Source of the DNA: an uncultured Acidobacteriota bacterium
Lineage (GTDB): Bacteria > Acidobacteriota > UBA6911
NCBI GenBank assembly: GCA_963809485.1
Contig: CAWEJX010000008.1
Span: 512,001 to 576,000, forward strand
DNA: 64,000 nt
Direction: 5' to 3'
Part shown: one piece after another, positions 41,428 through 62,870 of the stretch
Layout of the letters: the number at the start of each line of letters is the position of its first letter
How positions within the stretch are numbered: position 1 is the stretch's first letter
Translations under genes and position numbers: made by a program
The notes under the pieces: generated by a model
Told to the model about the DNA's origin: nothing
Seen by the model: the letters and a program-made list of their open reading frames with translations, nothing else
The model's database searches: none

Positions 41428-41446
41428 GAAAGCCTGACAGGCCGCC

Positions 41447-44285: not shown

Positions 44286-44450
44286 GGCTGAGGCACCTGG
44301 AGCCAATCTGCGAACCATGTGATTTGAGTCACAGCTGTTCCCAATATTCTGGATTAAAGTATTAGCTGGCGACAAGTGTATGGCTTTGCAGCTGATGAAT
44401 GGGTAATCATCTCACCGATTCTGTGGGCATTTGTAAAGGAACAGAGCGCG

Positions 44451-44680
44451 ATGAAGATGTGGCTTTCGTCATCGGCTGCGGGGACTATGGTTATTTTCTG
44501 TTCCCCTGCATGGAGGCAGCCACTGCACCTATTACATTGCACCCAACGGCAGCGACTCCAACCCTTGAACCAAAAGCAGTCCCTGCGGCACGATCCAGAA
44601 GGCCGCCAAGACGCTCCGCGCAGGGGACACAGTGCTGATCCTGCAGGGTGTTTACGCCAAGAGGGCGGTTCCGGGCTCAA
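44451..44680 (+). pseudogene. N-terminal stub of a secreted beta-helix (DUF1565-like) protein
   Basis: TYYIAPNGSDSNP*TKSSPCGTIQKAAKTLRAGDTVLILQGVY with stop and frameshift. Confidence 0.65.
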
Positions 44681-44873
44681 AATAACGCACAGCGGGTGAT
44701 TAGAATCACAGCATAGCTCGTTGAGAAGCATTATGCTATCGATGGTTGAACTGTCTCGAGAGCCTACGAACGTATTTGGCGATTTGCTAGAACATGTTCC
44801 ACCAGCTATTATATCCAAAAACGAGTCCCGGACACGTGTTTGGCTATCGTCGCAGAAATTGGGAGGTAAAACC

Positions 44874-46316: not shown

Positions 46317-47097
46317 TCGGGGCGAGACTCCTACGGCGCATTCAGATGACGGAGATACCCGAAGATTCTCGGTACCGATATCCGCGATTCAGACACTGGC
46401 GGCGGTCCCCCGCCGCTTATTGATCGCCTCCCGATTGATTTTTTCCACAGGGTTTCTTGACAGAGAACAATTCGAGCGCATGGCGGGTCTCCGCACTATG
46501 AACTGCTGATTCGAAAGAGGATCAGGATGGAGGAAGTCTACTATCGGGCGATCACCCTCCCTGGCAGGCTCATCGTCCTGAAAGCAGATCCCGAAGTCGC
46601 GGAACGAAAAAAGATGAAAAAGGCTCAACGTCGGTGATGGCCCGATCCGGTTAGATTGGGGATCCGATTGGAGGCCGCTTGAGTGATAGACGCGAACAGG
46701 GCCCGCGCTGGAGTCTTCTCCAACATCAGCACGCTTGTTTGGTCAAAACTCTGAAAGACGACACGGGAAGGCGTGTAAAATTGAAGAGGGAGCGCAGAAA
46801 GCGTGGTAAAGGGCAGCCCAGGGCGAAGGCCGTGAAGCGAGCCGAAGCCCCGAGGTAAGATGGCAGGAACTCAAGCCCTGTATAGATGGAGCACTGGTCT
46901 GTTTGGCCCATACAGGACTCACTTCTGAATTTGTCCGGGACCCAGGATTCCGGAGCATAGCGGCAGGCGCTCCTTCAAATCGGGTTGTCCTCTGCCGCAC
47001 TCCGGTGCTCGGTGAGAAATAATCAGCTCCGCATGCTCCAGAGCTGTGAAGACCGGCAGACTGCTCATGACACTGCCGATCCGAGGCGCATACGGGA

Positions 47098-48171
47098 TCA
47101 GGCGAGCGTATTCCTGATAATCGCCACGACCGGCGATGCGTAGTCGGACACGGGAGTCGCGGCAAAAATTTGCTTTTGCCGCGGCAAGTCCGCGAGAACT
47201 TCTCGGATCGAGTTCAGGAATGACTCAGGCTCTCCATTCGTGAACAGGACGCTGGGTTCGGGCCGCGGTGTGGCGTTGCTCGCAACGACCGGTACCCCGA
47301 GCCAGATTGCCTCGCGTATCGAGGAGCTGTCCCCTTCGCTGCGCGTCGGCCGCAAAAAGACATCCGTGTACTTCAGCATCGGCCAGAACACGTGCTGTTC
47401 CGATCGCAGGAAGACTGCATCAGCAGGTCCGGCGTTCTCGATACATTGCCGCAGGTTCCGGACCTTACCTGGATTGATCTCAGAGTCGTAGGTGCTCAGC
47501 ATCAGACCGACCCGAGGATACTGCTCCCGGATTCTAGGCAGCACCGAGAGCAGCAGGTCCAGACCGTACATGTTTCCACGTTCGCCCAGCCACAATTGGC
47601 CATTTGCGGCAAGTACCGGCGTGTGACTGCGGGCGAATTCAATTACCTCATCGGGCGGCTCTTCGCTCCTGTCTGCGGGGAGTATGAATCCGGGAATCAG
47701 ATGGACCTTTGCAGGATCGATCCCCTGTTGCACGATGGAGTCGGCAAGGTGGGGAGAAACAGGCATGATATATTCCGCGTTGCGTAGCGCAACCAGGGTC
47801 ATCCACCTGGCAAGCGAACGGCTCCGTTCGAAAGTGCGCAGGATATGTTCCTCGCCGATGCGGAGGATGTAGCGTTTACCCCTAAATACCTTCAGCAGGT
47901 AGGCAAGAAACCGGACGCCGGGCCGGCCGGTAAAGACGTAGAGGCTCCTTTCGGGAGCCCAGAGGGCGAACTTGATAAACCACAGTATCTGGTTTCGGCG
48001 AATGGATACAGCACGCGGCGGATCCTGCCCATCGCTGACACGGTTGTACACCCGCGCCCTTATGCCCTCCTGCTGCAGACAATCCAACAGGCGAACGATA
48101 TGAGTAGCCATTCCCCCATAGGGCGGTGGGTAGATACCCCAGATTGCCACATCCCAGGAACGCTTGCTCAT
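47098..48171 (-). CDS. Glycosyltransferase family 4
   Basis: YPPPYGG, DVFLRPTRSEGDSSSIREA..LGVPVVAS. Confidence 0.88.
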   Translation of the reverse strand: MSKRSWDVAIWGIYPPPYGGMATHIVRLLDCLQQEGIRARVYNRVSDGQDPPRAVSIRRNQILWFIKFALWAPERSLYVFTGRPGVRFLAYLLKVFRGKRYILRIGEEHILRTFERSRSLARWMTLVALRNAEYIMPVSPHLADSIVQQGIDPAKVHLIPGFILPADRSEEPPDEVIEFARSHTPVLAANGQLWLGERGNMYGLDLLLSVLPRIREQYPRVGLMLSTYDSEINPGKVRNLRQCIENAGPADAVFLRSEQHVFWPMLKYTDVFLRPTRSEGDSSSIREAIWLGVPVVASNATPRPEPSVLFTNGEPESFLNSIREVLADLPRQKQIFAATPVSDYASPVVAIIRNTLA

Positions 48172-48217
48172 GCGGTCCTCCTCAGGAAGATTGTTCTGCC
48201 GAAGCGGCTGCGCACCA

Positions 48218-49921
48218 TCACTGTTCCAGCAACTGATTCAATCGATAGAATGGCAGAGGCAACCTCGACCGTCGCGTTAAGGCGTCGATCACGGTCAGGT
48301 TCCCCTCTTTCGCAAACGTGTGGCACGCCAGTATGCGTGAGTCCAATTCGGGCCGCACCGATCGCACGGTCTGCTCCCGGTAATCGGTCTCGTTCAGGAC
48401 CTCCACCTCGTTGATGTCGAATCCGTATCCGTACGTGCTGCCTCCATTCTGCGATGGCCGGAAGATCTTTCCGCCCTCGAAAAACACCCTGCCTGCCGGC
48501 CTCGCCCGCTGAATATCCGTAACAACGGGATTGCGAGGATGAGGATTCCAGGTGCCGGCAAATAGATCATCCGCGTAGTAGAGGAAGAGCTCCACCTGCG
48601 GATGTGCCCCAGGATGCTCCGCCATCGCCGTGAAGAGCCACCATCGGTCGGCGTGACGAAAGAGAGTGGTGTCGACGGCTGTGACGTCCTTCATGAGACA
48701 CGTCTTCAAACGCCAGACAAACGGGAATGATTCGCATTCATACAGGTCGATTCTCCTGCTCTGGGCCGATTCGGGGATCATGTAATACGTGTCTTCCCAG
48801 CAGAACACAAAGGGATAGGACAGGTGAACCGGTCTCTTCAGGACGGATACCGGAGGTTTCCAGCGGCCTTCGTCGTCCATCTCGATCACCGAGATGTGTC
48901 CCTTGCCGGTCGTGTACAGGAGTTCCTCGATGAAGATGTAGTACTTGCCATCCCGTCGTATAATTATCGGATCCGCCCAGAACCTGTCTCCGGGCGGCAT
49001 CATGACACTAAATCCCTTGAAGGATAGATCACCGTGCCCGCTCGGCCCATACAGGAGATACCATGTATCCCGACAGCCTATCCGCCGAACCAGCATCCCC
49101 GCCAACCTGGTAAAAATCCTGCTGAAGTGCAGAGCAGACGTGAAATTTGAGGGCACACCATAAGACGCAGGCGCTGAAAGCGTCGCGTTGCGATTGTTCT
49201 CGGCCACCTCACGGAAAAATTCCACTTCGCCTAGCCGCCGCAGCAATTCGAGTTGTCTCGGGAGAAACGCAGCGGAAACCCAGAAGTAGTAGCTTCGATT
49301 CCGACCTGGAGAGAAAGGGTATGTGAAATGGGAGGAACGATAGAGGACCATCTCCCGCCCCAGTTCGCCTCCCGCGGCGTGCAGTGACGATCCTGTCGTC
49401 GGGTGATTCCGTACCACTTCCCAGAATCCCGGCAGATCATCCGAGAGGACGGTCGCGTCTGAATGATTGTAATACCAAGTGCCGAAGCGGCACGCGCGCA
49501 GGTCCGCGACATTGAGGCCGGAAAATCCCAGCTGTACCAGCACATCGAGATTAAATAGCCGGATACGGGAGACGGTATTGGCGTCCAATGTGAGGCAGTC
49601 TTTCCCTCGTATCGGCTTGACACACAGCGCCGGAGCTCCCGGACAAAGCGGGCCGATGTCCCTCGGTTCCATGGGATCCGGTTTCCTGGCGAACAGCACG
49701 TCATCGATCCAGTTCAGAATGCGGTACATCAACGGCAAAGCCGCCGGCAACGCCTGGACGGAACTCTGTGGACGACCGGGCGGCGTTGCATTGATAACCA
49801 GCAACTCTATCCGGGCGCACCCGGAACCTACGGCTCGCTCGAGAGCGTAATGCGCCCATGCAGGGATCTGGCGACCATCGAGGAGCAACCCGAGTTTAAT
49901 CTCCGGCCTGGAAGTGGTCAT
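48218..49921 (-). CDS. Formyltransferase-like N-domain fused to a five-bladed propeller (GINT1-N / GH43-like)
   Basis: FWADP, YIFIEE, HLSYPFVF, YMIPES, ARPAG, RPSQ..YG; N-terminal LDVLV..G..PGFWEV. Confidence 0.7.
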   Translation of the reverse strand: MTTSRPEIKLGLLLDGRQIPAWAHYALERAVGSGCARIELLVINATPPGRPQSSVQALPAALPLMYRILNWIDDVLFARKPDPMEPRDIGPLCPGAPALCVKPIRGKDCLTLDANTVSRIRLFNLDVLVQLGFSGLNVADLRACRFGTWYYNHSDATVLSDDLPGFWEVVRNHPTTGSSLHAAGGELGREMVLYRSSHFTYPFSPGRNRSYYFWVSAAFLPRQLELLRRLGEVEFFREVAENNRNATLSAPASYGVPSNFTSALHFSRIFTRLAGMLVRRIGCRDTWYLLYGPSGHGDLSFKGFSVMMPPGDRFWADPIIIRRDGKYYIFIEELLYTTGKGHISVIEMDDEGRWKPPVSVLKRPVHLSYPFVFCWEDTYYMIPESAQSRRIDLYECESFPFVWRLKTCLMKDVTAVDTTLFRHADRWWLFTAMAEHPGAHPQVELFLYYADDLFAGTWNPHPRNPVVTDIQRARPAGRVFFEGGKIFRPSQNGGSTYGYGFDINEVEVLNETDYREQTVRSVRPELDSRILACHTFAKEGNLTVIDALTRRSRLPLPFYRLNQLLEQ

Positions 49922-50003
49922 TTTTGCTGCAGGTTCCCGTCGGCACTCGTAGATACCAGAAATTCAACGCTTTTATTGGATCCCTTCAGTGAAATCGTGA
50001 TCA

Positions 50004-51170
50004 TCACCCCTCCCGGTCGCGAAGGTCTGGCAGGTTTGCGCTGATGACGACGAGCCCCAGAACAAGCCAGGTGCATTTCCTGAACTCCCAGGTCAATACC
50101 GAGGCGCCGATGAACCAGATCGCGAGAACGGCAAGCCAGAGTTGCGACAGCACCTTCGGTTGAACAGCTGCCTGGCGCAGGACAATTGTCAGGACGCAGG
50201 CAAAAATCAGAAAGCCGGGCAGACCGAGTTCTGCGCTCACGGACAGGAGTGTGTTGTGGGGAACGGGGCCGATGCCAGCAGGAGGATGGAGAACTCCGCT
50301 GCCGACGCCTAAAACCGGATGTTCGGCAAACAATTGCAGCGTCTGAATCCATATCGCGCCGCGACCCCCAAGATCCAAGGAGGCTACCGAATGATGCGTA
50401 GTAGACAGCCGCTTGATCACAGACTCGGGTATGTATGGCACCGCGAGAATGCCTGCTGTCAGCAGAAAAAAGAGATACAGCACGCGCGAGGACAACCGGT
50501 TTTTGCTGCTCGCCCATACCAGGTAAACCACGAAAGGAAAGATGGTGAACAGAAATGTACGACTCCCTGTCAGCGTCATCCCAAAGATGGCGGCAGGTAT
50601 GTAAACGTAGTTCAAAATCCTGAGAACTCGATTTCTGATGCCCGTTCCCGACGAGGTCGCCAGGTGCCATGCGAACGGAAGCCCGATAGCCAGAACGAGA
50701 ACGAGATCTACTGCATTGATGTCTGCTCCGGCGTAGCGCCCCCCCGAGTATTCGGATATTTCGATGCCCGCACTGTAGTTGTATATTGTGGCCCCGATAG
50801 CCACGTACGCGCCGAGGATATAGGCCTGCAGTGCAGCTGCCAGCGCTTTGGGACCCGTGCAGAGGTCCCAGAGAATCCACATGAACAGGGCAAGCTGGGC
50901 ATACGTCTTGACGTGCTGGATCGTCTGATCAACCGCCAGAGACCAGAACAGACTGGCTGCATTCCACAAGACGAAACAAAATATCGCAAAATGGAAGGCG
51001 CGAAGCCTGCGCAGTGACAGTCTGCTCAGCAGGGAAAATGACCAGACGGCTGCCGTCAGGATCCCAAGAATCCTCGACATGGTCCCCCATTCGCCGATTG
51101 TGACGGCATTCTCCCAGGGAACGGTGAATATCACAAGCAACGACAAGACGAATGCCAGTTTTCGCATCAC
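50004..51170 (-). CDS. O-antigen ligase / Wzy polymerase-like membrane protein
   Basis: About 10 TM helices, LTGSRT, R..IW, P.LGVG.G, HNT.L...AELG..G. Confidence 0.9.
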   Translation of the reverse strand: MMRKLAFVLSLLVIFTVPWENAVTIGEWGTMSRILGILTAAVWSFSLLSRLSLRRLRAFHFAIFCFVLWNAASLFWSLAVDQTIQHVKTYAQLALFMWILWDLCTGPKALAAALQAYILGAYVAIGATIYNYSAGIEISEYSGGRYAGADINAVDLVLVLAIGLPFAWHLATSSGTGIRNRVLRILNYVYIPAAIFGMTLTGSRTFLFTIFPFVVYLVWASSKNRLSSRVLYLFFLLTAGILAVPYIPESVIKRLSTTHHSVASLDLGGRGAIWIQTLQLFAEHPVLGVGSGVLHPPAGIGPVPHNTLLSVSAELGLPGFLIFACVLTIVLRQAAVQPKVLSQLWLAVLAIWFIGASVLTWEFRKCTWLVLGLVVISANLPDLRDREG

Positions 51171-51349
51171 ATCAAACCTACTATTATCTCCGCCACCGGG
51201 ACTTTCGGCGTCTCGCCGCCCGGGAGCAGGACCCGACTGGGAGCGCCGGCGTCCCGCCGGCCGTTACGAAGGGGCGCTGGCTGATCGCAAAGGAATTGCT
51301 TGACTCAAACCGAAGATCAAGAATATAAGCTCCTTTCGGGATCCACGCG

Positions 51350-52019
51350 AATGAACACACCTTTTCACTCTTCGAAACAGACTACTCTCCTAGGCTCTAT
51401 CGTGCTTGCCGGGATTTTCCTATTCCTCTTCCGCACCCAATTTTTGTTGTTCCTTGGCAACCACCTTATTATTGAAGACCGTCTGCATCCTGCGGATGTC
51501 ATTCATGTCATCGCCGGCGAAGATTATCGGACCGATTACGCCATCCGACTCTATAAAGCGGGTCACGCCAAAATCCTTTTTTTTACCGGCGGCTGGTGCA
51601 GACAGCACTCCTACTATCACGGCGATCACGCTAGGGCTCGATCCCTGGCGCAGGGCGTCTCCGCAAATGCGATAGTTTTAGATAATTCAAACGTCATCAG
51701 CACATATCAGGAAGCCGAAAGGCTGAAAGAATGGATGGGCCGCAGCCGGACAGTTGTCCATTCGGTGACGGTCGTCAGCGACCCATTTCACATGCGCCGG
51801 GTTCGCTGGACCTATGAGAGATTGCTCGGAAAGTCTGTTGCCGTGCAGATGGCCCCGGTTCCTTTTGAACTGACGCCTTACCAGCGTAATTGGTGGGCCG
51901 ATGGATTGAGCCGCGGCTATGTTAAAGATGAGTATAAGAAGCTTGTTTATTATGTGCTTCGATATCAAATCAGCACAGGGAAATTCCAGGAATGGCTTGC
52001 TTCCAGGGATCAGGAATGA
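51350..52019 (+). CDS. YdcF/DUF218 (ElyC-like) protein
   Basis: N-terminal TM, FTGG, STYQEA, VSDPFHMRR, KDEYKK. Confidence 0.88.
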
Positions 52020-52147
52020 TGCCTATCCACCTACCGTATCTTAGTCTGCAACATCCCGATTGTTATTGCTGAAAAATGGAGATTCGCAGGTTGGGTTGCG
52101 TTCGGGTGTACTGTTTCAGCCAATTCGTTTATTTCAAATTGGCCCCC

Positions 52148-53752
52148 TTATTTTAAACGAATTGGCAAGATTGCTTTAAACCGACGAAGGACATCTGTTT
52201 TCTGCTTCCCGGACAGGCCGATGAAAAAAGCAAGGGCAAGAGCGGTGCAGAGTGTCGGTCCGGCCGCAACTATCAAGGCAGCCCACGCGACTGGTGAATG
52301 CCATTCCCCAGTCGTGAGAATACTGTCAACGAGGGATGCTGCAGCAAAAAGAGCCGCTGTGGTCATGGCAGGACGGATGATTGACTTTATCTGCGACATC
52401 ATCTCGATATGTAGCATGCGGCCGATCAAAAATGGGTATTGCATACTGAGAATCGCTCGACCTAAAATAAGCCCAAGACAGATTCCAATAATGCCCATCT
52501 TGAAGAAATGAACAAGGATTCCGGCGGCTATCAGGGACAATGAGACGGATATCGCTCCAATACTCACCTTTCGGGCAAGGTTGAGTGTTAGATCAATGAC
52601 GTTCGCGTCATTACGAATAAACACAAACTGCGCAACCACCAGGACTATAAAAAGGTTTGGACCGGTACCGACCCAGTGATTTCCTCCGACCCACAAGGTA
52701 ACGAAGGTTCGATTCCAAAGTAGCATTCCTGTCCCCAAGGCTGTAACAATCAGCCATGTGAAGGTCATGATTTCGCCGCGTACTCTGGCCGCCCTCTCCA
52801 AATCGCCGGAACCAATGATTCCTCCAAGCCCGGGCAGGATTCCAAAAACCATGATGGCTACAAGGGCAATTGCGGTTTCCGGGCCATATTTTGCGAGAGT
52901 GTAATTGGTGACAGACTCTACAGAATTCAGCAGAGCCAGCACGACTACGTCCGATGCGATCATCAGGTTCATGATAAGGTTCCATGCAAGGAACCACCAG
53001 CTCAGACCGAAAAATTCCCGAAGTGCGGTCCTTTTGGGTTTCTCAATACCGAACCATGGCGCATAGGTCTTCACGATCTTCAGGTAAAAAAGGCCTGACA
53101 AAATGGATGAAGCCAGAGTTGCAGCGGCTACGCCGACAATGCCTGCCTTGAAATATAATGCCAGCCAAACCAATCCCCCACCCAGCAAAACGAGGAAAGC
53201 TGAAACGCCCATGCGCTTATATCCCTTGTTTTCTCCCTCCAAGACGGATTGTGGCACGCTGACAAGGCTGCTTGTAATCAGGGCCGCGACAAGAAGTGCA
53301 CATGCGACACGGATAGGCATAAAAGATTCAGCAGGCGTCTTAATCCAATAAGGTACAAACCAGACTAGCAGCCCTCCAAGCAGGGACAAAATCGGCAAAA
53401 AGAAGCTGAATACTATCAGCGTGCTACCTACAAATGAGCGCTTTAGATTATAGTCGTCGGAATTTTGCACTTGTGCGAGGGCGAACTTCAACGTCTGGGT
53501 CGGGCGCCCGCTTGCAGGAGTAATATAGCCGGTCAGGCGATTAAGTACCTGCCAGGCGCCGAAATAGAAGTCACCCAGGCCAAACACCATAAGTGGTGTT
53601 ACAAGAAATGCTACGGTGATTCTGGCTGCATAATCCAGGACAGAAGCTAATGCATTCAAGGAAGCTTTATTGGTGAGACTGCTCTCGGGAAAAAGGCGGG
53701 GAATTTTATCTGGCGCATGCACGGATTTCAGATTTATTACCTTGGCGAACAT
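52148..53752 (-). CDS. wzx: Wzx-like polysaccharide flippase
   Basis: About 14 TM helices, FLVTPL...LG...FGAW; operonic with glycan genes. Confidence 0.85.
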   Translation of the reverse strand: MFAKVINLKSVHAPDKIPRLFPESSLTNKASLNALASVLDYAARITVAFLVTPLMVFGLGDFYFGAWQVLNRLTGYITPASGRPTQTLKFALAQVQNSDDYNLKRSFVGSTLIVFSFFLPILSLLGGLLVWFVPYWIKTPAESFMPIRVACALLVAALITSSLVSVPQSVLEGENKGYKRMGVSAFLVLLGGGLVWLALYFKAGIVGVAAATLASSILSGLFYLKIVKTYAPWFGIEKPKRTALREFFGLSWWFLAWNLIMNLMIASDVVVLALLNSVESVTNYTLAKYGPETAIALVAIMVFGILPGLGGIIGSGDLERAARVRGEIMTFTWLIVTALGTGMLLWNRTFVTLWVGGNHWVGTGPNLFIVLVVAQFVFIRNDANVIDLTLNLARKVSIGAISVSLSLIAAGILVHFFKMGIIGICLGLILGRAILSMQYPFLIGRMLHIEMMSQIKSIIRPAMTTAALFAAASLVDSILTTGEWHSPVAWAALIVAAGPTLCTALALAFFIGLSGKQKTDVLRRFKAILPIRLK

Positions 53753-53774
53753 GAGAGCCTCGATGATGTGAGGA

Positions 53775-54524
53775 TCAGATTGCGAAATCTCGGTCTTTCC
53801 TTTTGGCAATCTCAGCGGTGATGTCGTTCACAAGCTCGTCGGGTAAATGTATGCCGGAATCATAGCGAAGCACCTGAACATGGCTATTGCATAACTCAAT
53901 GCGCTCGATCACCCGGTCATACGCTGACCGATACCTGTTCAAGAAATCAATCAGAACCTGATCGGATTGGTCTTTGAAGATATGATCCTCTGCTCTGGAA
54001 CGAATCCGTTTCATTAGAATCTCGTTGGCCGCATCCAGATAGATGAGGAGGTCCAAAGTATTGGCCCACATGGCGTTTATCTTTGTCCACCATTTGCGAG
54101 CACCAGGGCCCCGAAGGTGCAGCGGGCCGAACTCAAGTAGTGTCGAAATCAGGAAGACCGGCCCCTGATCCAGCAGAAGATCCTTTCTGTGCTTGATCAC
54201 AGCCTTACTCAAAAGACCGGGCCAGCCGTTCAACATCGCCATCCAGGCCAAATGACGCCGAGAAAGCCCTATATCCTCCTTTCCATCAAAGGGCCGGCGA
54301 ACAATTATGGGAATGACATAGAGGATGTGCTTAACAAAAAACAGGCTGTTCTGAATAGCGTGCACGTCAGGGAGCGACGAGGCGCGGATATCTGGGATGG
54401 ATTTCAGAATAGCCGCAAAAAGTGTCGTCTTCCCTGCGCCTGCCGGACCGACTACCTCGATGATCCACGGCCGATTTCGGCTCGGTTCTCGGCAGGGCGG
54501 TAAACCGATCAGAGGCGTGACCAT
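53775..54524 (-). CDS. P-loop nucleoside/nucleotide kinase-like protein
   Basis: IEVVGPAGAGKTT, LLLDQG, IYLDA......RIRSR lid. Confidence 0.8.
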   Translation of the reverse strand: MVTPLIGLPPCREPSRNRPWIIEVVGPAGAGKTTLFAAILKSIPDIRASSLPDVHAIQNSLFFVKHILYVIPIIVRRPFDGKEDIGLSRRHLAWMAMLNGWPGLLSKAVIKHRKDLLLDQGPVFLISTLLEFGPLHLRGPGARKWWTKINAMWANTLDLLIYLDAANEILMKRIRSRAEDHIFKDQSDQVLIDFLNRYRSAYDRVIERIELCNSHVQVLRYDSGIHLPDELVNDITAEIAKRKDRDFAI

Positions 54525-55981
54525 ATCGCCCTTTTTATTTCCGACAATACCTCTTCCTTCGAGCGACTTGCATCAATCAGATCGACCGATGATTGGCTCC
54601 AGTCGATTTCCCAAACCTCGCCGGAGCGAGCGCGCACCGATTCTTCGCTCTCGTCGAATTTGCGTCCGACAGCGATCTCGGGGTCGACGCGAAGAACAAT
54701 CATTATCTCTGGCGGCATTATTCTCCGGTAATATCGATTTTCCATTCTGCCCAGACACCTAGTGAACCAGTTATTGGGTCCATTAACGGTCATGCGATCA
54801 ATCTGTGGACCGTCCATTAATGTGATTTGTGGCAAAGGGAAACGATCCAAAAGGACCATCTTTCCTTTCATAGCGCGCCGGCGGGCCCTTTTGAAAACTG
54901 TATAGCGGTCCCGCGCCGTGCAGACTTCACGGATCATCCATGGATATCCTGGGAATGTAAGCAGATATGATTCCTTTGTGTAACGGATTTCAGCCCGGAT
55001 GAAAGGATAAATTCCAAAGGTTCGGCCGATTTTCAGCATTCCGCGAATGACGATGGTTAGGAGGGACCACTTCGGTTTGCCCAGATGGTAGCGGCACGCC
55101 TGAAATTCCTGCGAAAGCCAACCGAAGATGGCTTCCACGGCGCTCGTTTTGCCTGCCCCGTCCCCACCTGCAATGGCAACAACCTTTCCCCCGCTGTTCA
55201 GAACCTTGCGATGCATTCTTCCCAAAATACGCCACTCCAGCGGCCAAGCGACCCGACGCCAGAACTTCAGCCCGACATCGATCCATCGAGGTTGGCGGCC
55301 GAATGCCGCAATGGAATTCAATAGCTTCTGGCCGGTTCTCAGATGCGACCAGAATGAGCCGTTCCCGCGGAGCGTATCAATACACGATCGAAAGAGCGCA
55401 GGTTCCATATACGGCAAATGGAGTCCGAGGATCTGATCCACATAGGGCAGAGATGCCCGCTTCAGCAGGAAATCCAGCTCATTCGACTCTGCAGATGAGA
55501 GTTGACCTTGACCCAAAAGCACAGTATCCCAGGTAAAATGTTTGATCATCAGCCGAATCACCAAGAGTATCAGTTCAAATTCAGGATCCGGTACCTTAAA
55601 GAGGTTTTTCTTGGCCGAAGCAGCTAGATATGCTTCTTCGAGTGGGATGCGATAGTTCTTGGTTGCATCATGGCCAAGAACAAGCTGGTAATGGGCATGC
55701 ACATGAACCAACCGGCCGGTCTCACGGTCATGACCATAGTAGTCATCAATCCCGTGAATACGTCGCGATGGCGCATCAAATGCTTGCTTATAATCCAATC
55801 GGTTAAGGATTTCTGTAAAACGCTGCGCATCCGCCCGACTGATCAACAAATCCAGATCGCTTTCACCAGCTGCCGCACGGTCCAGCATGGCGTTGCTTTT
55901 CCAATGACAGTAGCGGATGTTGTTAGAGGCTAGTTCGCCGCACAATCGGCGAACAAGAGTCAAAGCCAGGGTGCTGTCCAT
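54509..55981 (-). CDS. Nucleotidyltransferase-like domain fused to a thymidylate-kinase-like domain
   Basis: YCHWKSN..GESDLDLL; C-terminal AGGDGAGKTS, LDRFP, LRVDPEIAVGRK, IDAS. Confidence 0.8.
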   Translation of the reverse strand: MDSTLALTLVRRLCGELASNNIRYCHWKSNAMLDRAAAGESDLDLLISRADAQRFTEILNRLDYKQAFDAPSRRIHGIDDYYGHDRETGRLVHVHAHYQLVLGHDATKNYRIPLEEAYLAASAKKNLFKVPDPEFELILLVIRLMIKHFTWDTVLLGQGQLSSAESNELDFLLKRASLPYVDQILGLHLPYMEPALFRSCIDTLRGNGSFWSHLRTGQKLLNSIAAFGRQPRWIDVGLKFWRRVAWPLEWRILGRMHRKVLNSGGKVVAIAGGDGAGKTSAVEAIFGWLSQEFQACRYHLGKPKWSLLTIVIRGMLKIGRTFGIYPFIRAEIRYTKESYLLTFPGYPWMIREVCTARDRYTVFKRARRRAMKGKMVLLDRFPLPQITLMDGPQIDRMTVNGPNNWFTRCLGRMENRYYRRIMPPEIMIVLRVDPEIAVGRKFDESEESVRARSGEVWEIDWSQSSVDLIDASRSKEEVLSEIKRAIWSRL

Positions 55982-56145
55982 TCAATTCCGATCTGCCATA
56001 AGCTCTGAAAATTCCGCCGAGCAAGTCGCCAGCTTGCAGGTTCGCGGTCTTCAGAAAGCTCTCCAGACACAATGCTTATCTTGTTTCAGCGAACTTCCTG
56101 TCTTCCTTGAAACCAGTTGTTTATAGGCTTGTTCGCTTGTATCCG

Positions 56146-57348
56146 CTACATCTTCTGATCCAGATTCTTACACCTTTCTCTGTGCTTCAATTCAGGAACA
56201 ACAATTCCTATGGCTTCCACCATCTTTTCCTTCTGCCAGAAAGGCGCCTCTTTGAGGCGCTCAAATTCATACAATGCCTGATCAATTTTCTCGCGTGCCG
56301 ACCATGCAAGCTGGCTGATTACGCCTACTCGTCTGTAGCGATCCAAATCTACCGGGTCATCCATTCTATAAAACTCTTCAACAGCCTTTTCGCCGGTTGT
56401 ATCGCTTGGAGAGAACCAGCAAGGCCATTCCTTGGAGTCTACAGTCAGGCGGCCAGCCAATATTTTAGCCTCCTCTTCGGAATCACAGATAGCTGGCCGG
56501 TATCCCCCGGCTTCCAGCACCATAAGCGCAATTTCGGGAAACGACAGAAGATCTTTGTTCCGATCCAGTTTAGGAAAATATACCTCGCGATTTTTACCCA
56601 GGAAACAGGACAGAAGACACAATTGTCCAGCCTCCTCATGGGAGATGAAATATCGTTTGACATCGTTTGGCGCAGATAAAGGCTGGCGCTTGGCCAGCCT
56701 TTGCATAAAACCGTACAGCAGGCTGCCGTCAGAAAAGGCTACGTTTGCAAAGCGAGCGGTGGAAAAGGGGACGCGATCGGCAAAGGATAGCAAAATCCGC
56801 TCCATAAAACTTTTTGTCGCGCCCATGATATTTTCGGGGTTTGTTGCCTTGTCAGAAGAGACCGAAAAGTGTTTCCTGATTTTTGTATCCACAAGCGCAT
56901 CGAGTAATTGCTTGACATAATATACATTTGTATTGTACATCCGCATCAAACTGTAAGGATCCTTTTCGGAACGCACATGCTTTAAAGCAGAGAAATTGGC
57001 CACATAATCATAATCCTCCTCTGCCTGAAGCAGCCGGTTGAACTCTTCCGATCCTATGGAGATTGCAAACGTCTTAAAATCGTCGGGCAGAGCGATCAAT
57101 GAAGAGCGAAGATCCCTCACCACCTCCACCAGGTTGTTTTCGCTGATATCCACCAGGTGAAGCGCCTCTGGTTCATACGGGATCAGTTGTCTTAAAAAAA
57201 TGCTGCCGATTGATCCCGCCGCCCCTATGATCATGATTCGGGCACCGCGAATGACATTCCCAATTTGCATATGGTGATCGGCAATATCATCAGCGAAAAT
57301 CGATCTGGATCTTTTAAGAATTCTGTTGACCAAGTCATTGTCTATCAT
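56146..57348 (-). CDS. UDP-GlcNAc 4,6-dehydratase (CapD family, LgaA-type)
   Basis: IGAAGSIG, VDISENNLVE, SALKHVRSEKDPYSLMRM, SSDKA.NP.N.MGATK, ARFANV. Confidence 0.9.
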   Translation of the reverse strand: MIDNDLVNRILKRSRSIFADDIADHHMQIGNVIRGARIMIIGAAGSIGSIFLRQLIPYEPEALHLVDISENNLVEVVRDLRSSLIALPDDFKTFAISIGSEEFNRLLQAEEDYDYVANFSALKHVRSEKDPYSLMRMYNTNVYYVKQLLDALVDTKIRKHFSVSSDKATNPENIMGATKSFMERILLSFADRVPFSTARFANVAFSDGSLLYGFMQRLAKRQPLSAPNDVKRYFISHEEAGQLCLLSCFLGKNREVYFPKLDRNKDLLSFPEIALMVLEAGGYRPAICDSEEEAKILAGRLTVDSKEWPCWFSPSDTTGEKAVEEFYRMDDPVDLDRYRRVGVISQLAWSAREKIDQALYEFERLKEAPFWQKEKMVEAIGIVVPELKHRERCKNLDQKM

Positions 57349-57444
57349 TGCGGTTTCCAAACGAGTTATTCAATTTACTCAAGGAAGCTCTTTGCCACTC
57401 CAATGCTCAATCCGATATCCTGTTGAGATACGCTGCAAATTGGG

Positions 57445-58668
57445 CTAAGAATGGGTTGCTTTTGTCAGAAGTCCTTCAAACTGTTCAGCAGCCGCCTGTT
57501 TCGAGTGATGGCACTCCACCCAGTGACGGCCGTTCTTGCCAAGACGGTCGCAAAGACGTGGTTCGCCTTTCAGATTCAGGATAGCTCGGGCCAACTCAGG
57601 AGGATTTTCCGGGGCTACGCATAAACCGGCCCCTGCACGCATGATTAAGTTCCAGGCTTCACTCCCTTCATCCACCGACGCTATGACAGGTCGGCCACTG
57701 GCAAGTATAGAGAAAATCTTGGAAGGTAACGAGTCTGCTGTAACACCTTTTCGCAGTAAAACTAATGAAACATCCGAAGTAGCCAGCACTTCAGGTAGTC
57801 GGTCGCGCGGTTGGAATGGCAAAAATAGTACATTCGTTAAGCCGCGTGTCGCTGATTGACGCATCAACTCCTCCTTGCCAATACCATCGCCGATCACAAC
57901 GAAACGAATATCACCGACTCCGCCCAGAAGCTCGGATGCGGCCAGGATGCTTTCAAGTCCTTGAGAAAGCCCCAGATTTCCTGCATACAGCACAACAAAT
58001 GAATCTATGAGGCCGTGTTCCTTGGCAAAAGGCGTCATGCGTGGCATGGGCCTGATGAATTCGGTATCGACCCATATGTTAGTTAAAATCATCTTTTCAT
58101 CGGGAACCCCTAAGGCCCGCAATTCTGGCCGGAATGACTCGGAGAGAATACCGATGATGCCCGAGTTCTCAAGACAAAACCTTTCAAGGCGGCCAACTGC
58201 CGAAATGACACTGGTGTTCCGGAAGACACCCAGGGTTATCCCAATATGTGGAAAGACATCAAACACCGAGAACACCGCAGGTTTCTTCTTTCGCCGAACC
58301 AACCAGGCAAACGGGAACCATACCCACAGGGCCGGATTTGCAACAAATGCAACATCGAATGAAATGCCCGTGCCAGCCCACGCTGCCCCAATCTGATAAG
58401 ATGCAAACTGAAGAATTCGCAAACTCAGCCTGGACCTGTTGACTGAAGGAAGGGGAATTCTCAATACATCCACCCCATTTTCATTGGACTGGCGAACTCG
58501 CAATCCACGAAATGCCTTTTGAACATAACCCGAAGGATAATGCGGTACCGTAGTGATCACGCTAACCTTGTGACCCCGTTTTGCCAGTTCCGTGCCAAGC
58601 AACGTGAACATCGGTGCACCCGGCCCAAGGTCCGGTTCATAGTGAGGGACAAGCATTAGAATATGCAT
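57445..58668 (-). CDS. Glycosyltransferase family 4 (WbuB-like)
   Basis: HYEPD, VPHYP, LYAGNLG..QGL, PSK....LASGRP. Confidence 0.92.
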   Translation of the reverse strand: MHILMLVPHYEPDLGPGAPMFTLLGTELAKRGHKVSVITTVPHYPSGYVQKAFRGLRVRQSNENGVDVLRIPLPSVNRSRLSLRILQFASYQIGAAWAGTGISFDVAFVANPALWVWFPFAWLVRRKKKPAVFSVFDVFPHIGITLGVFRNTSVISAVGRLERFCLENSGIIGILSESFRPELRALGVPDEKMILTNIWVDTEFIRPMPRMTPFAKEHGLIDSFVVLYAGNLGLSQGLESILAASELLGGVGDIRFVVIGDGIGKEELMRQSATRGLTNVLFLPFQPRDRLPEVLATSDVSLVLLRKGVTADSLPSKIFSILASGRPVIASVDEGSEAWNLIMRAGAGLCVAPENPPELARAILNLKGEPRLCDRLGKNGRHWVECHHSKQAAAEQFEGLLTKATHS

Positions 58669-58969
58669 AGTTTTGGCAACAATAGGCTTTTCCGTGCCTA
58701 ATGAGTTTTGAGGGGGAAGTCATCCTCGCGAGCAACTAACACGAGATGGGGTATTAGTTTGAGCACTGCTAATATTTCGTGCTGAGGCGTAGTGCCAGTT
58801 TCAGTCGGCTTCTCGTTTGGGAAACAACGCATTGATATGCCGGAGCGTCAGCCAATTCATATATCATTTGCTCCTACCGGAAGCATCCACACACTGGGGT
58901 AGATTTAATACTCTACCTGTGAGCAGCAAAGGACAGGTACATTTGGAACGAAATGCCCATTTATATGTA

Positions 58970-60066
58970 ACGTCACTAATAATTGCACATAAAAACGCCT
59001 TGTGATATTTTGGTATCATGAAACCAATAACGATGGAGGATGCCAAAGGCGCTATTTTATAACTGCAGAATGAGATCCGGCGGTCCAAGGAATCCCGATG
59101 TGATCACCGTCTGCACGGCGTTCTTTGGGTGGCTCAGCGAATGAGCTGCCGCCATGTATTGGAAATACTTGTCAATTCACTTTGAATTGTTGCTTACTGA
59201 GTGCAACGATTTGAACGCAAGGCACTAATCGGTTTGACTGAGGAAGAACGGCCTTAACGACATGGATATCTGTGCAAAGAACAGATACGCAGCATAAATG
59301 AGGCTTGGCGCAGGCAGCCTGTCGATTTTGGATTTGCGCGGAACCTGTAGGATGGCGAGATCCTTTCAATATACCCGAAACACGAATTGGATGTGCGCCT
59401 GGGCCTGCGACAATGCCAACGCATGTTCCGGTAGTTCATGTTCCGTTTTCGCAAGGCGAGGCCCCTAATCGCCAATGCCTGTCCTTAGAATCAGCGCCAG
59501 GTAACATTATATATATTTGCATATTTGCCGGTTGCCGAAAAGAGAAGACATCGATCTCTGGTCGATGGATGATTTCCACTCCCAGCAGCACGGTTCTTTA
59601 ATCCGGACGTGGGATTCCGCCGGAGACCAAAGACCCGGTGCGGCTACATCACCCGGCTCAGATGTGTGTCGGCTACTTTGGCCCTGTCCGGCTGCGAGAC
59701 GGCAAACTGGTATATAGGCCCTAGACCACTCGTTTTAATGCCGAGATTTGCTTTCATTTTCCTCGGCATCTCTGGAATATTAGTTCTCGTTCCGTCCGGA
59801 GAGTCATTGCGATTTCAAATAACGCGCGATGCCATGCAAGGACTGGAGGAGGGCAGCGGAACCTTGGTTTAGTCTCGAAAATCCTCCGCCGTATAGCCCA
59901 GAACTCAACGCGATTGATTGAGCATGGGAGTTGATTCTCCGCCTCGCAACACCCAATCAGTAATTTCCAGCGCTTGAGGGTGCATTCATGGATGTTGGCA
60001 CATATTCGAATTCTGACTCAATAGCAGTCATGCGTTTAGGGCATGATGCGCAATTATTTAGGACGT
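58970..60066 (+). mobile_element. Degenerate full-length IS630-family element
   Basis: TA-flanked terminal IRs ACGTCACTAATAATTGC / GCAATTATTTAGGACGT; decayed ORF from ATG 59018 with MDDFHSQQHG and PPYSPELN motifs. Confidence 0.85.
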
Positions 60067-61217
60067 TATGCATAGGTATGGGATGCCGATATGGTTTGAT
60101 AAAAACCTAGGATAGCCCTACCTATTTGTTCAGGCGAACAATAATTCAGTACATAATTCCTGCCAGCAGTTCCCATTTTTTCTGCAAGAAGCGGGTGCTC
60201 GAGTAATCCACAGATTGCATCAGCTAATTCATCTGGATTATCTGGCCGAACCAACATTCCGGTCTTTTTATTCTGGATAAGGTCAAGAATACCATCCACC
60301 GATGAGGCAACCACTGGCCTGCCAGCCACCATAGCTTCAATCACGGCACGAGGCATCATCTCAGCACGGGTAGGGAATGCAAAAATATCGCAATTAACCA
60401 ACCATTTTTTTACATCGCAAAACGGAATTTCCCCAACCAAACGAAATCGATCACCGATATCATACCTGCGAATAAGTTCGCGAACTTTATCCGCATAGGC
60501 TTGATGAGCGGGATCTATCCTGCCCACCCAGTCAAAATAAGCATCAGGATATTTTTTTATAATCAGCGCAGCAGCATGTACCAATAAATCAACTCCTTTG
60601 CGTTCACTAACATGTGCAATAGTTAGAATATACGCTTTCCTCTTTGCATGATCTGCCAATTTGATATTCTTGGGTCTGACCTGAGAAACATTGTCCATTT
60701 CATCATATGGATTTGGGATTACAGTCAATTTTTTAGCAGGTACACCAAGACGAATAAGTTGATCCTTATGAGTAGTGGCTAACGCGATAAAACCATCAGC
60801 GAAAAGACGGATAAATTTGGCCGAAAGCCATGATGTTAGTGGATTTTGCCATGTTTGAGGGTTTCGCGACATCGCTATGATGGCAGGCTTTTTTTTGCCT
60901 AAAGCGGCTAATTGGACAGCGATAAAGGAAAATAGCAAATCTCGTAAGGCATTAACATGAACAATATCTGGATGGCCAGCCAATATTAGTTTTATAAGAT
61001 CCCGAATTATTTGAGTACCATTCGTAATAAAATTGGCTTTCTCACGTTGAAAATCCCTCGGTATGATCTTCAGTTGATCGCCCAGCACTTCAGAGGTCAG
61101 ATGATGGGTCTGGTCTATAATGCCATACGCCGTTATATAAATATCCTGTGTAGCCACGGCCTTGACCATCTTCGAATGTAACCTAACAACAAGGATTTTT
61201 TCTATAGAAGGAGTCAT
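60066..61217 (-). CDS. Glycosyltransferase family 4
   Basis: ERKG, DIFAFPT.AE.MP..VIEAM.AGRPVVAS. Confidence 0.9.
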   Translation of the reverse strand: MTPSIEKILVVRLHSKMVKAVATQDIYITAYGIIDQTHHLTSEVLGDQLKIIPRDFQREKANFITNGTQIIRDLIKLILAGHPDIVHVNALRDLLFSFIAVQLAALGKKKPAIIAMSRNPQTWQNPLTSWLSAKFIRLFADGFIALATTHKDQLIRLGVPAKKLTVIPNPYDEMDNVSQVRPKNIKLADHAKRKAYILTIAHVSERKGVDLLVHAAALIIKKYPDAYFDWVGRIDPAHQAYADKVRELIRRYDIGDRFRLVGEIPFCDVKKWLVNCDIFAFPTRAEMMPRAVIEAMVAGRPVVASSVDGILDLIQNKKTGMLVRPDNPDELADAICGLLEHPLLAEKMGTAGRNYVLNYCSPEQIGRAILGFYQTISASHTYA

Positions 61218-61256
61218 CTATCAGCGCCGTTAAAAATGCATTTCCCCATTTAAATC

Positions 61257-62402
61257 CTATCGGATAACAGCCAGCTTATTTTCAAGAGCTTTGACATACA
61301 ATTCGCCATACTGCCTGGCCATTTCGCGCACATGAAAGCGCTTTTTTACTATTTCCCGGCTTTTTTCACCCATTTGCGAAACCTTTTCAGGAGACTGGAG
61401 TAACCAAAGCATGGCAGATACGAGCTGCGGACAGTTTCCTGGCGGAAAAAGAACTCCATTCTCACCAGGCAAAACAAGTTCGCGAATACCTCCAACAGAT
61501 GTTGCGATAATCGGCTTGCCCACTGCCATCGCTTCCAAAATGCTAATTGGCAACCCCTCCCAATCTGATGGCAATATAAAACAATCCCCCGCGTTTAAAA
61601 TGGCTACTACATCATTCCTGACACCGGTGAAAATTACGTTATTGGAAATCCCCAAATCCCGTACAAAGTGAATTGTTTCCAGTTGCAACTGTCCATCTCC
61701 AACCAAAATCAGCACACAATTGGGGTAATATTTCAAAACATCTTTAAATCCATCCACAAGCATTCGTTGATTCTTTTTAGGGCTAAAGCTTGCTACATTT
61801 ACAAACACGAATGATTTTTCATGAATGCCCAATAGCTCCCGCATCTTTCTCCGCTGGATTATGGACGGAACAAATTTTTCTGCATCAATTCCGTTATAGA
61901 TAACCGGTGTATCTATCTGCCCATAAATTTCGTATACGGTTTTCTGAATCTCCGCGGAAATAGAAACCGGAATAACCCCCATTCTGTTAAATGCAAGCAT
62001 TTGAATAAATCTGTGCAAACCCCGAGACTCCTTATCCGCAATATTATGAATTGTATGGATCCTAACAGGTGTCTTGCACATCACCAATGATGGCAACAAT
62101 ACATATAGCGCATGCAGGTGATTATGAACAACGTGCGGCCGGAATTTGGAGAAAACCCGATATATCTCGCCAAAAATCCCAAAATCAAGGCCTACATGTT
62201 TTGTTAAATAATGAACATTACGCTCCAAATTATCTACATACATCTCAAATATCTTGCCGCCAGACGGTGATAGGCTGACAAGCTCCGCATCAAACTGCTG
62301 ATGGTCCAAATGTTCCAGCAAATCTATTGCCACCCGTTGTCCCCCTCCGGTGACGAGGCTGGGAATAACTTGTAGCACCTTCACCCGATCTGATTTAATC
62401 AT
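61257..62402 (-). CDS. Glycosyltransferase family 4
   Basis: GGGQR, IYNGID, KNQ, PSDWEGLPISILEAMAVG. Confidence 0.93.
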   Translation of the reverse strand: MIKSDRVKVLQVIPSLVTGGGQRVAIDLLEHLDHQQFDAELVSLSPSGGKIFEMYVDNLERNVHYLTKHVGLDFGIFGEIYRVFSKFRPHVVHNHLHALYVLLPSLVMCKTPVRIHTIHNIADKESRGLHRFIQMLAFNRMGVIPVSISAEIQKTVYEIYGQIDTPVIYNGIDAEKFVPSIIQRRKMRELLGIHEKSFVFVNVASFSPKKNQRMLVDGFKDVLKYYPNCVLILVGDGQLQLETIHFVRDLGISNNVIFTGVRNDVVAILNAGDCFILPSDWEGLPISILEAMAVGKPIIATSVGGIRELVLPGENGVLFPPGNCPQLVSAMLWLLQSPEKVSQMGEKSREIVKKRFHVREMARQYGELYVKALENKLAVIR

Positions 62403-62403
62403 G

Positions 62404-62829
62404 ACATCTTAAGTAATTGTGCATAATCGTCTCAGAGCCTGACTGCCTTTGAATCAGGATTCGAAGGTATACCCACCACGATGATTACATCCTTGATCGC
62501 GGGAATTACCTTTTGGAGGTGGTGAGACAGCGTCTCAGTCGCCCAAGCTGTTTTTCCTCAGTTAGACCAGTTAGTCTCTCGCGTTCGAATCATCGCACCC
62601 AGCAAGCAACCGTTCGCGGTGCATCGCCAAGTAATTCCGATACCCAGCGGCAGCTCATCCCCTGAGCTACCCAAAGAACGCCGTGCAGGCGGTGATCATA
62701 TCGGGATTCCTCGGACCGCCGGATCTCATCCTGCAGCCCCAAAACTGCGCTTCCTGCATCCTCCATTGTTGGTGGCTTCATGCCAGCAGAACATCATGAA
62801 GCGCCTCTATGCGCAATTAATTATGACGT
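62404..62829 (-). mobile_element. Internally deleted IS630-family element, inverted relative to 58970-60066
   Basis: Same terminal IRs; MKPPTMEDA..LQDEIRRSEESRYDHRLHGVL is homologous to the 59018 frame. Confidence 0.85.
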
Positions 62830-62870
62830 TAGCCAAGAACAAATAGGAGCCGGCAGAATATCCTGTTCTG

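Follow-up and report, generated by a model that had tools for sequence, protein, structure and literature searches.

Most bacterial O-antigens, capsules, and biofilm polysaccharides are built by Wzx/Wzy pathways, whose cytoplasmic steps are thought to be fully listed: a priming transferase, glycosyltransferases, a few modifying enzymes, and the flippase. Here we describe three adjoining genes on the minus strand of a 64,000-nucleotide stretch of DNA (hereafter the window) from an uncultured Acidobacteriota bacterium (contig CAWEJX010000008.1, positions 512,001–576,000). They encode NTK, a fusion of a nucleotidyltransferase (NTase)-like N-domain with a P-loop kinase C-domain; K2, a second P-loop kinase; and a predicted flippase of the Wzx type. 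The trio is probably a cytoplasmic-face accessory module of a Wzx/Wzy-dependent exopolysaccharide (EPS) pathway, in which NTK and K2 would work at the membrane, near the enzymes that handle undecaprenyl-(pyro)phosphate-linked sugars, and the dedicated flippase would export the product. Full-text literature searches found no paper on the NTK fusion or on the three-gene module.

Among the closest described systems, the LicD/fukutin/FKRP enzymes have an NTase-type fold with a D-x-D pair and move a phospho-alcohol from a cytidine diphosphate (CDP)-activated donor to a glycan, releasing a nucleoside monophosphate (NMP). WbdD, which has a protein-kinase-like kinase domain together with a methyltransferase, caps chains in a pathway dependent on an ATP-binding cassette (ABC) transporter. 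In Escherichia coli, the proteins YghR, YghS, and YghT appear, in the parts of the literature available, only as uncharacterised ATP-binding proteins. The accessible text on the pseudomycoidin cluster describes PsmN as an “uncharacterized NTP transferase” that depends on its D-x-D pair and is needed for adding one or two hexoses to a peptide that the kinase PsmK has phosphorylated (PMC6993621). In the phosphonate gene cluster family (GCF) 540, as far as the available portion of the source goes, the phosphoenolpyruvate (PEP) mutase Ppm is flanked by a thymidylate kinase (TMK) and a PF14907 protein (10.1101/2021.04.07.438883 / PMC8942020).

Organization and conservation of the trio

The open reading frames (ORFs), the NTase-like HWKSN...DLDLL signature, the TMK-like P-loop, the overlap, and the 22-nt spacing that the first-pass annotation of this DNA had reported were all present on the minus strand. 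Checked as an ORF and by translation, NTK (54509–55981) has 490 aa. Its N-domain covers residues 1–255 (55217–55981), of which residues 24–49 read YCHWKSNAMLDRAAAGESDLDLLISR, with the signature YCHWKSN...GESDLDLL at residues 24–46; the C-domain covers residues 256–490 (54512–55216), with the Walker A motif GGDGAGKT at residues 272–279. K2 (53775–54524, 249 aa) carries GPAGAGKTT at residues 26–34. The two genes overlap by 16 nt, the K2 ATG (54524) lying within the last codons of NTK, whose stop codon is at 54509–54511. Between the K2 stop codon (53775–53777) and the next ATG (53752), which has GAGG-N6 before it, there are 22 nt; this ATG is the likely start of the flippase (534 aa, 52148–53752), rather than the upstream TTG at 53809 of the mechanically listed ORF (52148–53809), a polytopic membrane protein. 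Promoter-like sites were no commoner than in shuffled sequences, and no convincing terminator was found inside the trio.

A word-indexed protein search with NTK gave 1446 matches at E≤1e-3, the best 120 of them near full length and 49–82% identical, and 83 database proteins matched K2; these are, therefore, real and conserved genes. When clustered at 50% identity, the NTK relatives formed 3501 clusters at E≤1e-3, 2515 at E≤1e-10, and 1414 at E≤1e-30. Their database names are “thymidylate kinase”, “dTMP kinase” (JGI, PGAP), or “hypothetical”, and NCBIfam holds no model for NTK, for K2, or for their counterparts in Chelatococcus.

For the locus survey, one genome per species was scanned: 598 stretches matched, 152 were confirmed, and 79 loci were kept. 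These represent seven phyla (Chloroflexota, 28; Acidobacteriota, 21; Actinomycetota, 14; Gemmatimonadota, 5; Planctomycetota, 3; Cyanobacteria, 3; others, 5), and an alphaproteobacterial locus from Chelatococcus was found in addition, which makes at least eight. Synteny was counted with profiles from our own alignments, the denominators being the loci with enough sequence. K2 lay directly 3' of NTK in 50 of 75 loci and anywhere in the locus in 64 of the 75. Of 68 loci, 41 had a P0003-type flippase contiguous with NTK, whether or not K2 was part of the block, and 35 had all three genes contiguous, in either order. In 12 loci without a flippase of this type, a Polysacc_synt_3 flippase was found immediately upstream of NTK. 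Each locus held two to four kinase paralogues, and five Actinomycetota loci carried a separate C-domain-like gene.

Counts of the wider context were restricted to loci with 5 kb or more on either side, 50 in all. Among them, a MOP flippase was present in 48, Wzy_C in 44, K2 in 43, a GT4 glycosyltransferase in 35, a Wzc-type co-polymerase/tyrosine kinase in 21, and Wza in 12; every one of the 50 had at least one polysaccharide marker. In the window itself, the gene at 50004–51170 (minus strand) encodes a Wzy_C-family polymerase or ligase (PF04932, E=6.3e-17), which marks the pathway as of the Wzx/Wzy type. A coupling to Wzx flippases and polysaccharide loci had been proposed from the letters of this one stretch; it is strong, by synteny as well as by the natural gene fusions described below. 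The first-pass annotation had also placed NTK downstream of a sugar dehydratase, correctly: upstream of NTK, beyond a 164-nt gap, comes a 404-aa Polysacc_synt_2 protein of the CapD/PseB/FnlA type (56146–57360, minus strand), an NDP-sugar (nucleoside diphosphate sugar) dehydratase/epimerase (PF02719, E=1.4e-35; TIGR03589, 67.9 bits with a cut-off of 407.75). Homologues of this gene occur in just 6 of the 79 loci, and it is context of the locus, not a conserved partner of the module.

The arrangement is also found in a cultured organism. In the alphaproteobacterium Chelatococcus daeguensis TAD1, genes for Wzc, NTK (“hypothetical protein”), an “AAA family ATPase”, and an “oligosaccharide flippase” lie in that order on a megaplasmid, within an XrtA/PEP-CTERM-type EPS locus.

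Some loci hold further genes of related kinds. Four Pyrinomonadaceae loci (L041, L043, L046, and L054) have a second pair, a TMK-like gene and a PF14907 gene that each stand alone (~219 and ~344 aa), ~5–7 kb downstream of NTK, next to a PAP2 phosphatase, a polysaccharide deacetylase, and a Metallophos-fn3 protein; overall, a solo PF14907 gene was seen in eight loci and a solo TMK-like gene in seven. This pair was considered as a split NTK, and was not counted as such because the similarity of its members to the NTK domains is distant (hhalign 18%, 89% over 32 columns, and 47%). Two NTK paralogues, or K2 copies flanking NTK, were present in some loci (L029, L035, L054, L071; L001, L015, L016). 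In L071, one NTK is split into several frames beside an intact, more distant copy and is, judging by its sequence, probably a pseudogene. Sulfotransferase genes (Sulfotransfer_1/3, Gal-3-O-sulfotransferase) occur in 13 of the 79 loci, mainly in Actinomycetota (L029, L039, L052, L060, L068, L007, and others), from which it follows that some of the polysaccharides made by these loci may be sulfated.

The flippase

The membrane protein of the window, which has many hydrophobic 19-mers, scored 20.4 bits with PF01943, under the gathering score of 28.2. Among 22 members of its family, PF01943 was matched by 15 (best E=3.9e-11) and PF13440 by six, and a profile search of the PDB sequences found no solved relative. 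By these family matches, it is predicted to be a divergent Wzx-type MOP flippase.

The N-domain of NTK

By sequence, the N-domain is a member of PF14907, a family of uncharacterised nucleotidyltransferases in the NTase clan. The match, over profile positions 57–196 of 249, scored 32.7 bits with the whole of NTK and 35.6 bits with the N-domain alone (gathering score 31.2). PF14907 was found in 22 of 23 aligned N-domains from the window and related loci at E≤0.01; of five other N-domain-type sequences scanned singly, four were under the gathering score. Aspartates D42 and D44, the D-x-D pair, are invariant in the alignment and lie on a predicted strand (43–47). Together with K28 and H95, they make up a set of active-site-type residues that is invariant across phyla, and H95 or D85 is a candidate for the third metal ligand. 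In the AlphaFold2 model of NTK (pLDDT 88.7, pTM 0.84), this part has an NTase-like core with a helical extension, the core showing the helix-strand-helix-strand order expected of a minimal NTase, with the D-x-D pair on the second strand.

A search of the PDB sequences with the N-domain profile gave nothing relevant. The language-model neighbours of the domain were “nucleotidyltransferase family” clusters (0.94–0.95), and, outside PF14907, the nearest named Atlas families, ANT(2'')-type clusters, scored just 0.79, which makes them no more than a lead. Phage members occur among the resembling Atlas clusters, and defence systems often contain NTase-fold and P-loop proteins, which would fit a phage-defence or toxin-antitoxin element, composed of an NTase and a kinase, that was inserted in the locus. 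However, PADLOC gave no meaningful match and phage genomes gave none; moreover, the same-strand, tightly packed operon position is kept across phyla, and NTK is fused in nature to Wzx and to phosphoglycosyl transferases. This explanation is so improbable that we reject it.

The two kinases

Sequence comparison assigns the C-domain of NTK to the YghR/S/T family, with the TMK fold and outside the dTMP-kinase equivalog. Foldseek matched the NTK model to solved thymidylate kinases (2pbr, E=1.6e-8, TM(target) 0.67) in alignments of 225–252 columns, and a phmmer alignment with the Aquifex TMK located the TMK-like part in the C-half. The P-loop VVAIAGGDGAGKTS aligns with LIAFEGIDGSGKTT of the Aquifex enzyme, acidic residue included, and the aromatic-x-x-A-R-R helix YTVFKRARR aligns with LLLFEASRS. 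The motif LDRF closes a predicted strand (375–378, strand 3), and ILDRF is also present in the TMK sequence. In the C-domain alignment, G-G-D-G-x-G-K, D379-R380, LDRF, and several arginines are invariant across phyla, and arginines R440, R450, and R452 of the Arg-rich lid are conserved; the motifs HxGKP, FPGYPW, CTARDRY, and MDGPQ are invariant and specific to the family. In view of TMK structures, the TMK-type motifs may form an NMP-acceptor site.

K2 (AlphaFold2 pLDDT 88.2) has a deoxynucleoside kinase (dNK)/NMP-kinase fold, matching TMK, dCK, dAK, AK, and AbmG in Foldseek, with solved thymidylate kinases matched to E=5.6e-7. Its lid is dNK-like (R-x-x-x-R-x-x-x-H), and hhalign related it to the NTK C-domain with 95% probability (E=2.7e-8), as expected of distant paralogues. 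In both kinase families the phosphotransferase motifs are all retained, lid arginines among them.

Given the TMK fold, the P-loop, and the JGI and PGAP names, the two proteins could be housekeeping thymidylate kinases that merely happen to be located in the locus. The first-pass annotation had already argued that they are not, and the curated models agree: NTK scored 22.6 bits and K2 25.4 bits with TIGR00041, whose cut-off is 83.25, and 17.5 and 21.3 bits with PF02223, whose cut-off is 27. Because these scores are so far under the cut-offs, a housekeeping role can be rejected as highly improbable. It is also contradicted by the fusion to an NTase-like domain, by the two to four paralogues per locus, by the polysaccharide setting of all 50 well-flanked loci, and by the megaplasmid position of the Chelatococcus copy; E. 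coli, moreover, has an essential tmk gene besides yghRST.

Natural gene fusions

A second P-loop domain follows NTK in 10 of the 150 best representatives, and in one of them (P0307) it is K2-like (hhalign 99.6%, E=8.7e-25). The fusions were then counted among the 30 relatives of at least 579 aa, which were scanned with Pfam: 17 belong to a class of ~700 aa with NTK and a P-loop domain, three join a Polysacc_synt_3 flippase to NTK, five a Bac_transf phosphoglycosyl transferase, one a GT2 glycosyltransferase (P0360), and four are unclear. The fusions of Wzx with NTK are P0277, P0342, and P0357. Those with Bac_transf are four full-length proteins (P0356, E=6e-77; P0358; P0362; P0363) and one fragment. 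One of the flippase fusions, P0376 (1303 aa), consists of Wzx, NTK (residues 510–991, E=2e-41), and a K2-like domain (residues 1004–1204, 93%), the trio in a single chain. The fusion partners all work on the inner side of the membrane, on intermediates linked to undecaprenyl phosphate.

The direct fusion to Wzx would also suit a regulatory or energising role, in which NTK and K2 gate or drive the flippase by nucleotide binding or hydrolysis, or modify Wzc or Wzx, for example by nucleotidylation. In Acidobacteriota, in Chelatococcus, and in other loci, NTK is positioned between Wzc and Wzx, and NTase-fold enzymes that AMPylate proteins exist (GlnE, DrrA). We consider such a role quite unlikely, as Wzc is present in just 21 of the 50 well-flanked loci, both kinase families have kept far more of the phosphotransferase motifs than a nucleotide-binding loop, lid arginines included, and we know of no MOP flippase that needs ATP.

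Somewhat different demands are made by the activation of a precursor, in which the kinase and the nucleotidyltransferase would convert a compound X through X-P to NDP-X, for use by a glycosyltransferase or phosphotransferase of the locus. A fusion of kinase and nucleotidyltransferase is a classical salvage-type layout, with analogies in Fkp, LicA/LicC, and AmgK/MurU, and an unusual residue in the repeat unit would account for a dedicated flippase. The TMK-like and PF14907 genes flanking PEP mutase in GCF 540, in the part of that report available, point the same way. It would, however, be hard to explain why a soluble precursor enzyme should be covalently joined to a flippase or a priming transferase, and no candidate small-molecule pathway is conserved beside the module. 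In addition, the known nucleotidylyltransferases for sugar 1-phosphates and phospho-alcohols have the GT-A-like NTP_transferase fold, not one of the Pol-beta type. Precursor activation is therefore rather unlikely.

Proposed role of the module

The first-pass annotation had left three alternatives for the two kinases: to activate and attach a substituent, to recycle the NMP that is released, or to cap lipid-linked units before flipping. Of these, recycling of NMP would fit best, because the C-domain keeps the TMK-type motifs and because some lineages join NTK to a phosphoglycosyl transferase that releases uridine monophosphate (UMP). Our preferred mechanism, a tentative one built by analogy, would have the NTase domain decorate the repeat unit on its lipid carrier and the kinases recycle the nucleotide that is released. 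With a nucleotide-activated donor, the PF14907 domain would attach a substituent through a phosphate link, or else a nucleotidyl group, to the repeat unit, with release of NMP; the fused TMK-like domain would phosphorylate this NMP, and K2 would add further phosphorylation. Removal and recycling of the nucleotide would pull reversible phosphotransfers forward before flipping, including the UMP-releasing priming step, and the unusually conserved, dedicated Wzx-type flippase would then export the product. Each fold would thereby act on the kind of substrate usual for it. The mechanism would, in addition, account for the fusion to the UMP-releasing phosphoglycosyl transferase and, as far as the accessible text on GCF 540 tells, the pairing of TMK-like and PF14907 proteins beside PEP mutase.

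Several points weigh against this interpretation. With the whole NTK model as query, Foldseek listed only kinase-family matches in PDB and BFVD, and none for the N-domain, so that the assignment of the NTase fold rests on Pfam and on the order of secondary structures; of the NTase-fold N-domain that had been claimed, the PF14907 match above the gathering score and the invariant D-x-D pair stood, and the structural match did not appear. In the NTase motif, W-K28-S29 occupies the position of the usual G-[GS] turn, which gives K-S instead. NMP-releasing transfer is itself drawn by analogy, the domain having no similarity to the LicD family. In the C-domain, HMMER paired the LDRF of TMK with the MDGP of NTK and not with its LDRF, and for this reason the equivalence of the two LDRF motifs rests on strand position. 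The hhalign alignment sets LDQGP of K2 opposite LDRFP of the C-domain, so DR[YF] is absent from K2 at that position, and no acidic residue is seen in the K2 P-loop; because of these two features, the acceptor of K2 may be something other than a nucleotide. K2 is absent from the majority of Actinomycetota loci and adjoins NTK in just 1 of 13. The fusion proteins are predictions from metagenome assemblies, known as protein sequences, and their flippase and GT2 partners release no NMP, which fits a general docking on the assembly line over NMP scavenging. Among the relatives of NTK and K2 found here, none has a known activity.

The main rival reverses the order of events, as the P-loop kinase or kinases would first phosphorylate a sugar hydroxyl of the lipid-linked unit, to which the PF14907 domain would then add a group, yielding a phosphodiester-linked side group. 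Among the P-loop kinases of this fold are enzymes, such as chloramphenicol phosphotransferase and zeta toxin, whose targets are hydroxyls of non-nucleotide or nucleotide-sugar substrates, and one NTK relative (P0326) has a weak Zeta_toxin match. The fusions to Wzx, phosphoglycosyl transferase, and GT2 fit action on a lipid-linked intermediate. The available text on pseudomycoidin supplies the same logic, in that PsmN, with its D-x-D pair, is needed to extend with hexoses the phosphopeptide made by PsmK (PMC6993621). However, PsmK is of the HPr-kinase type and is not TMK-like, and no phosphate-containing EPS is known from carriers of the module. In view of TMK structures, the P-loop Asp, DRF, and aromatic-x-x-A-R-R motifs of the C-domain also suggest a nucleotide acceptor. 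We give this order of events a small chance, above that of the other rivals.

The preferred mechanism, transfer by the NTase domain with recycling of the nucleotide, can be extended to a membrane-docked nucleotide-handling metabolon, a hitherto unrecognised station of the Wzx/Wzy pathway. It would be attached to the flippase or the priming transferase, in some lineages by fusion, and would decorate the lipid-linked unit, consume NMP, and so make phosphotransfer irreversible shortly before flipping; E. coli yghQRST would then be a reduced version of it. This extension is a slightly more doubtful proposal than the mechanism itself. There is a fair chance that what we describe, an accessory enzyme module of Wzx/Wzy loci that brings known folds together in an undescribed combination, follows a new underlying principle. 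The family is large (1414 clusters), is annotated as “thymidylate kinase” or “hypothetical”, lies within Wzx/Wzy-type loci of at least eight phyla, and is repeatedly fused to a flippase or a priming enzyme. If the proposal is true, whether as decoration of the repeat unit or as nucleotide recycling at the membrane, it would add a step to the pathway and account for the unusual conservation of this Wzx subfamily; a mis-annotation that is now widespread would be put right, and the functions of E. coli YghQ, YghR, YghS, and YghT would become approachable for the first time. Since Chloroflexota and Acidobacteriota from soil and wastewater carry the module, it may also bear on the chemistry of environmental biofilm matrices.

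Other features of the window

Upstream of the dehydratase gene, a WcaI-like GT4 glycosyltransferase is encoded at 57445–58668 on the minus strand (NF007640, 210 bits with a cut-off of 276; Pfam GT4 domains). On the other side of the trio, at 48218–49921 (minus strand), lies a GINT1_N/GH43-like protein (PF24793, E=1.2e-40), homologues of which occur in 18 of the 79 loci and recur in Chloroflexota; in related loci (L006, L017, L025, and others), such a gene is often directly upstream of NTK. A PelZ-like pectate lyase (44721–46316, plus strand) also recurs in Chloroflexota NTK loci and was found in 12 of the 79. A scan of positions 44000–64000 with Rfam gave no match. In the stretch of about 1.35 kb between two GT4 genes (58720–60065), the ORFs of all frames are at most 99 aa long and Rfam matches are absent, and the adjoining block 60001–62000 has a G+C content of 0.42, with ~0.53 for the window as a whole. 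This combination suggests that the segment around 58720–60065 is a recently acquired or decayed part of the locus.

On the plus strand, positions 36837–43953 hold a second glycan cluster, with four GT2 glycosyltransferases around a HepA-family/MsbA-like ABC exporter (NF045513, 523 bits, under the cut-off of 725). The set points to an ABC-dependent pathway for a polysaccharide or glycolipid beside the Wzx/Wzy locus. Farther away, three successive proteins of 270, 257, and 751 aa (18587–22918, minus strand) consist of “choice-of-anchor Z” PGGG repeats (NF058597, up to five repeats, 475 bits) and match nothing in Pfam; an ankyrin-repeat protein comes next (22969–23520). A protein of 1088 aa (12216–15482, plus strand) combines an MtrC/MtrF-like multihaem cytochrome with bacterial Ig and cadherin-like domains.

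Comparison with known systems

The first-pass annotation had drawn on two parallels, WbdD-type kinases and LicD/fukutin-type enzymes, neither of which was supported. WbdD is a poor analogy because of its protein-kinase-like fold and its ABC-transporter pathway, whereas NTK and K2 both have the P-loop NMP-kinase fold and stand in a Wzx/Wzy-type locus with Wzx and Wzy_C. The LicD/fukutin/FKRP enzymes resemble our proposal in the type of reaction only, as a mechanistic analogy; they have no fused kinase, and six N-domain-type sequences gave no LicD (PF04991) or fukutin-family match even at E≤10, the sole match apart from PF14907 being a weak one to DUF6222 (E=0.067). LicD is, thus, an analogy and not a matter of membership.

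PsmN and PsmK, as they appear in the available text, are like NTK in pairing an NTase-like D-x-D enzyme with a kinase; there, the two build a phosphate-linked decoration. They differ in the peptide substrate, in the HPr-kinase type of the kinase, and in being two separate proteins. PsmN is presumably a member of PF14907. In what is accessible of the GCF 540 report, the TMK-like and PF14907 families are likewise paired as neighbours, with the difference that they are separate genes beside a PEP mutase. No PEP mutase was found in those ORFs of the window that reach 180 aa, nor in the scanned representatives of the locus clusters. Thymidylate kinase (PF02223/TIGR00041) shares with the NTK C-domain the fold, the acidic P-loop, the DR[FY] after strand 3, the aromatic-A-R helix, and the Arg-rich lid. 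NTK is unlike it in its scores far under the cut-offs, in its NTase-like fusion, in its own invariant motifs, and in the presence of several paralogues per polysaccharide locus.

Relatives of the C-domain are also found in E. coli, where a tblastn search of plasmid records matched yghT. The gene order there is yghQ (“lipopolysaccharide biosynthesis protein”), a gene for a hypothetical protein that is YghR by its position, yghS, and yghT (“dTMP kinase” in PGAP). The record in question (NZ_MG591698.1, L080; 353 kb) is labelled a plasmid and looks chromosomal, with lptFG, pitB, gss, and the hyb operon around yghQRST. As for the “dTMP kinase” labels of PGAP, YghT scored far under the cut-offs of the dTMP-kinase models, and YghS had no NCBIfam match at E≤1e-5. 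A 274-aa hypothetical neighbour of yghQ was considered as an NTase-like protein and proved unrelated on comparison.

The ygh cluster differs from the NTK module in that no PF14907 domain was found there, and from NTK loci in lying outside any recognisable EPS operon. YghQ (PF01943, 44.3 bits, gathering score 28.2) is unlike the P0003-type flippase (hhalign 4%), and K2 is no orthologue of YghT, as only its P-loop aligns, which leaves it outside the YghR/S/T family. YghT and YghS are, by contrast, full-length homologues of the C-domain (hhalign 99.4%, E=2.2e-21, over 203 columns and 99.0%, E=8e-18, over 213 columns, respectively), with the motifs GxDGxGKS, HLGK, DRYP, and DG. Like NTK, YghR, YghS, and YghT have weak TMK-like matches in Pfam or NCBIfam, miss the dTMP-kinase cut-offs, and adjoin the gene of a MOP flippase, YghQ. 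Because YghS and YghT are homologous to the C-domain and YghQ adjoins them, the pattern of TMK-like kinases beside a MOP flippase reaches as far as E. coli.

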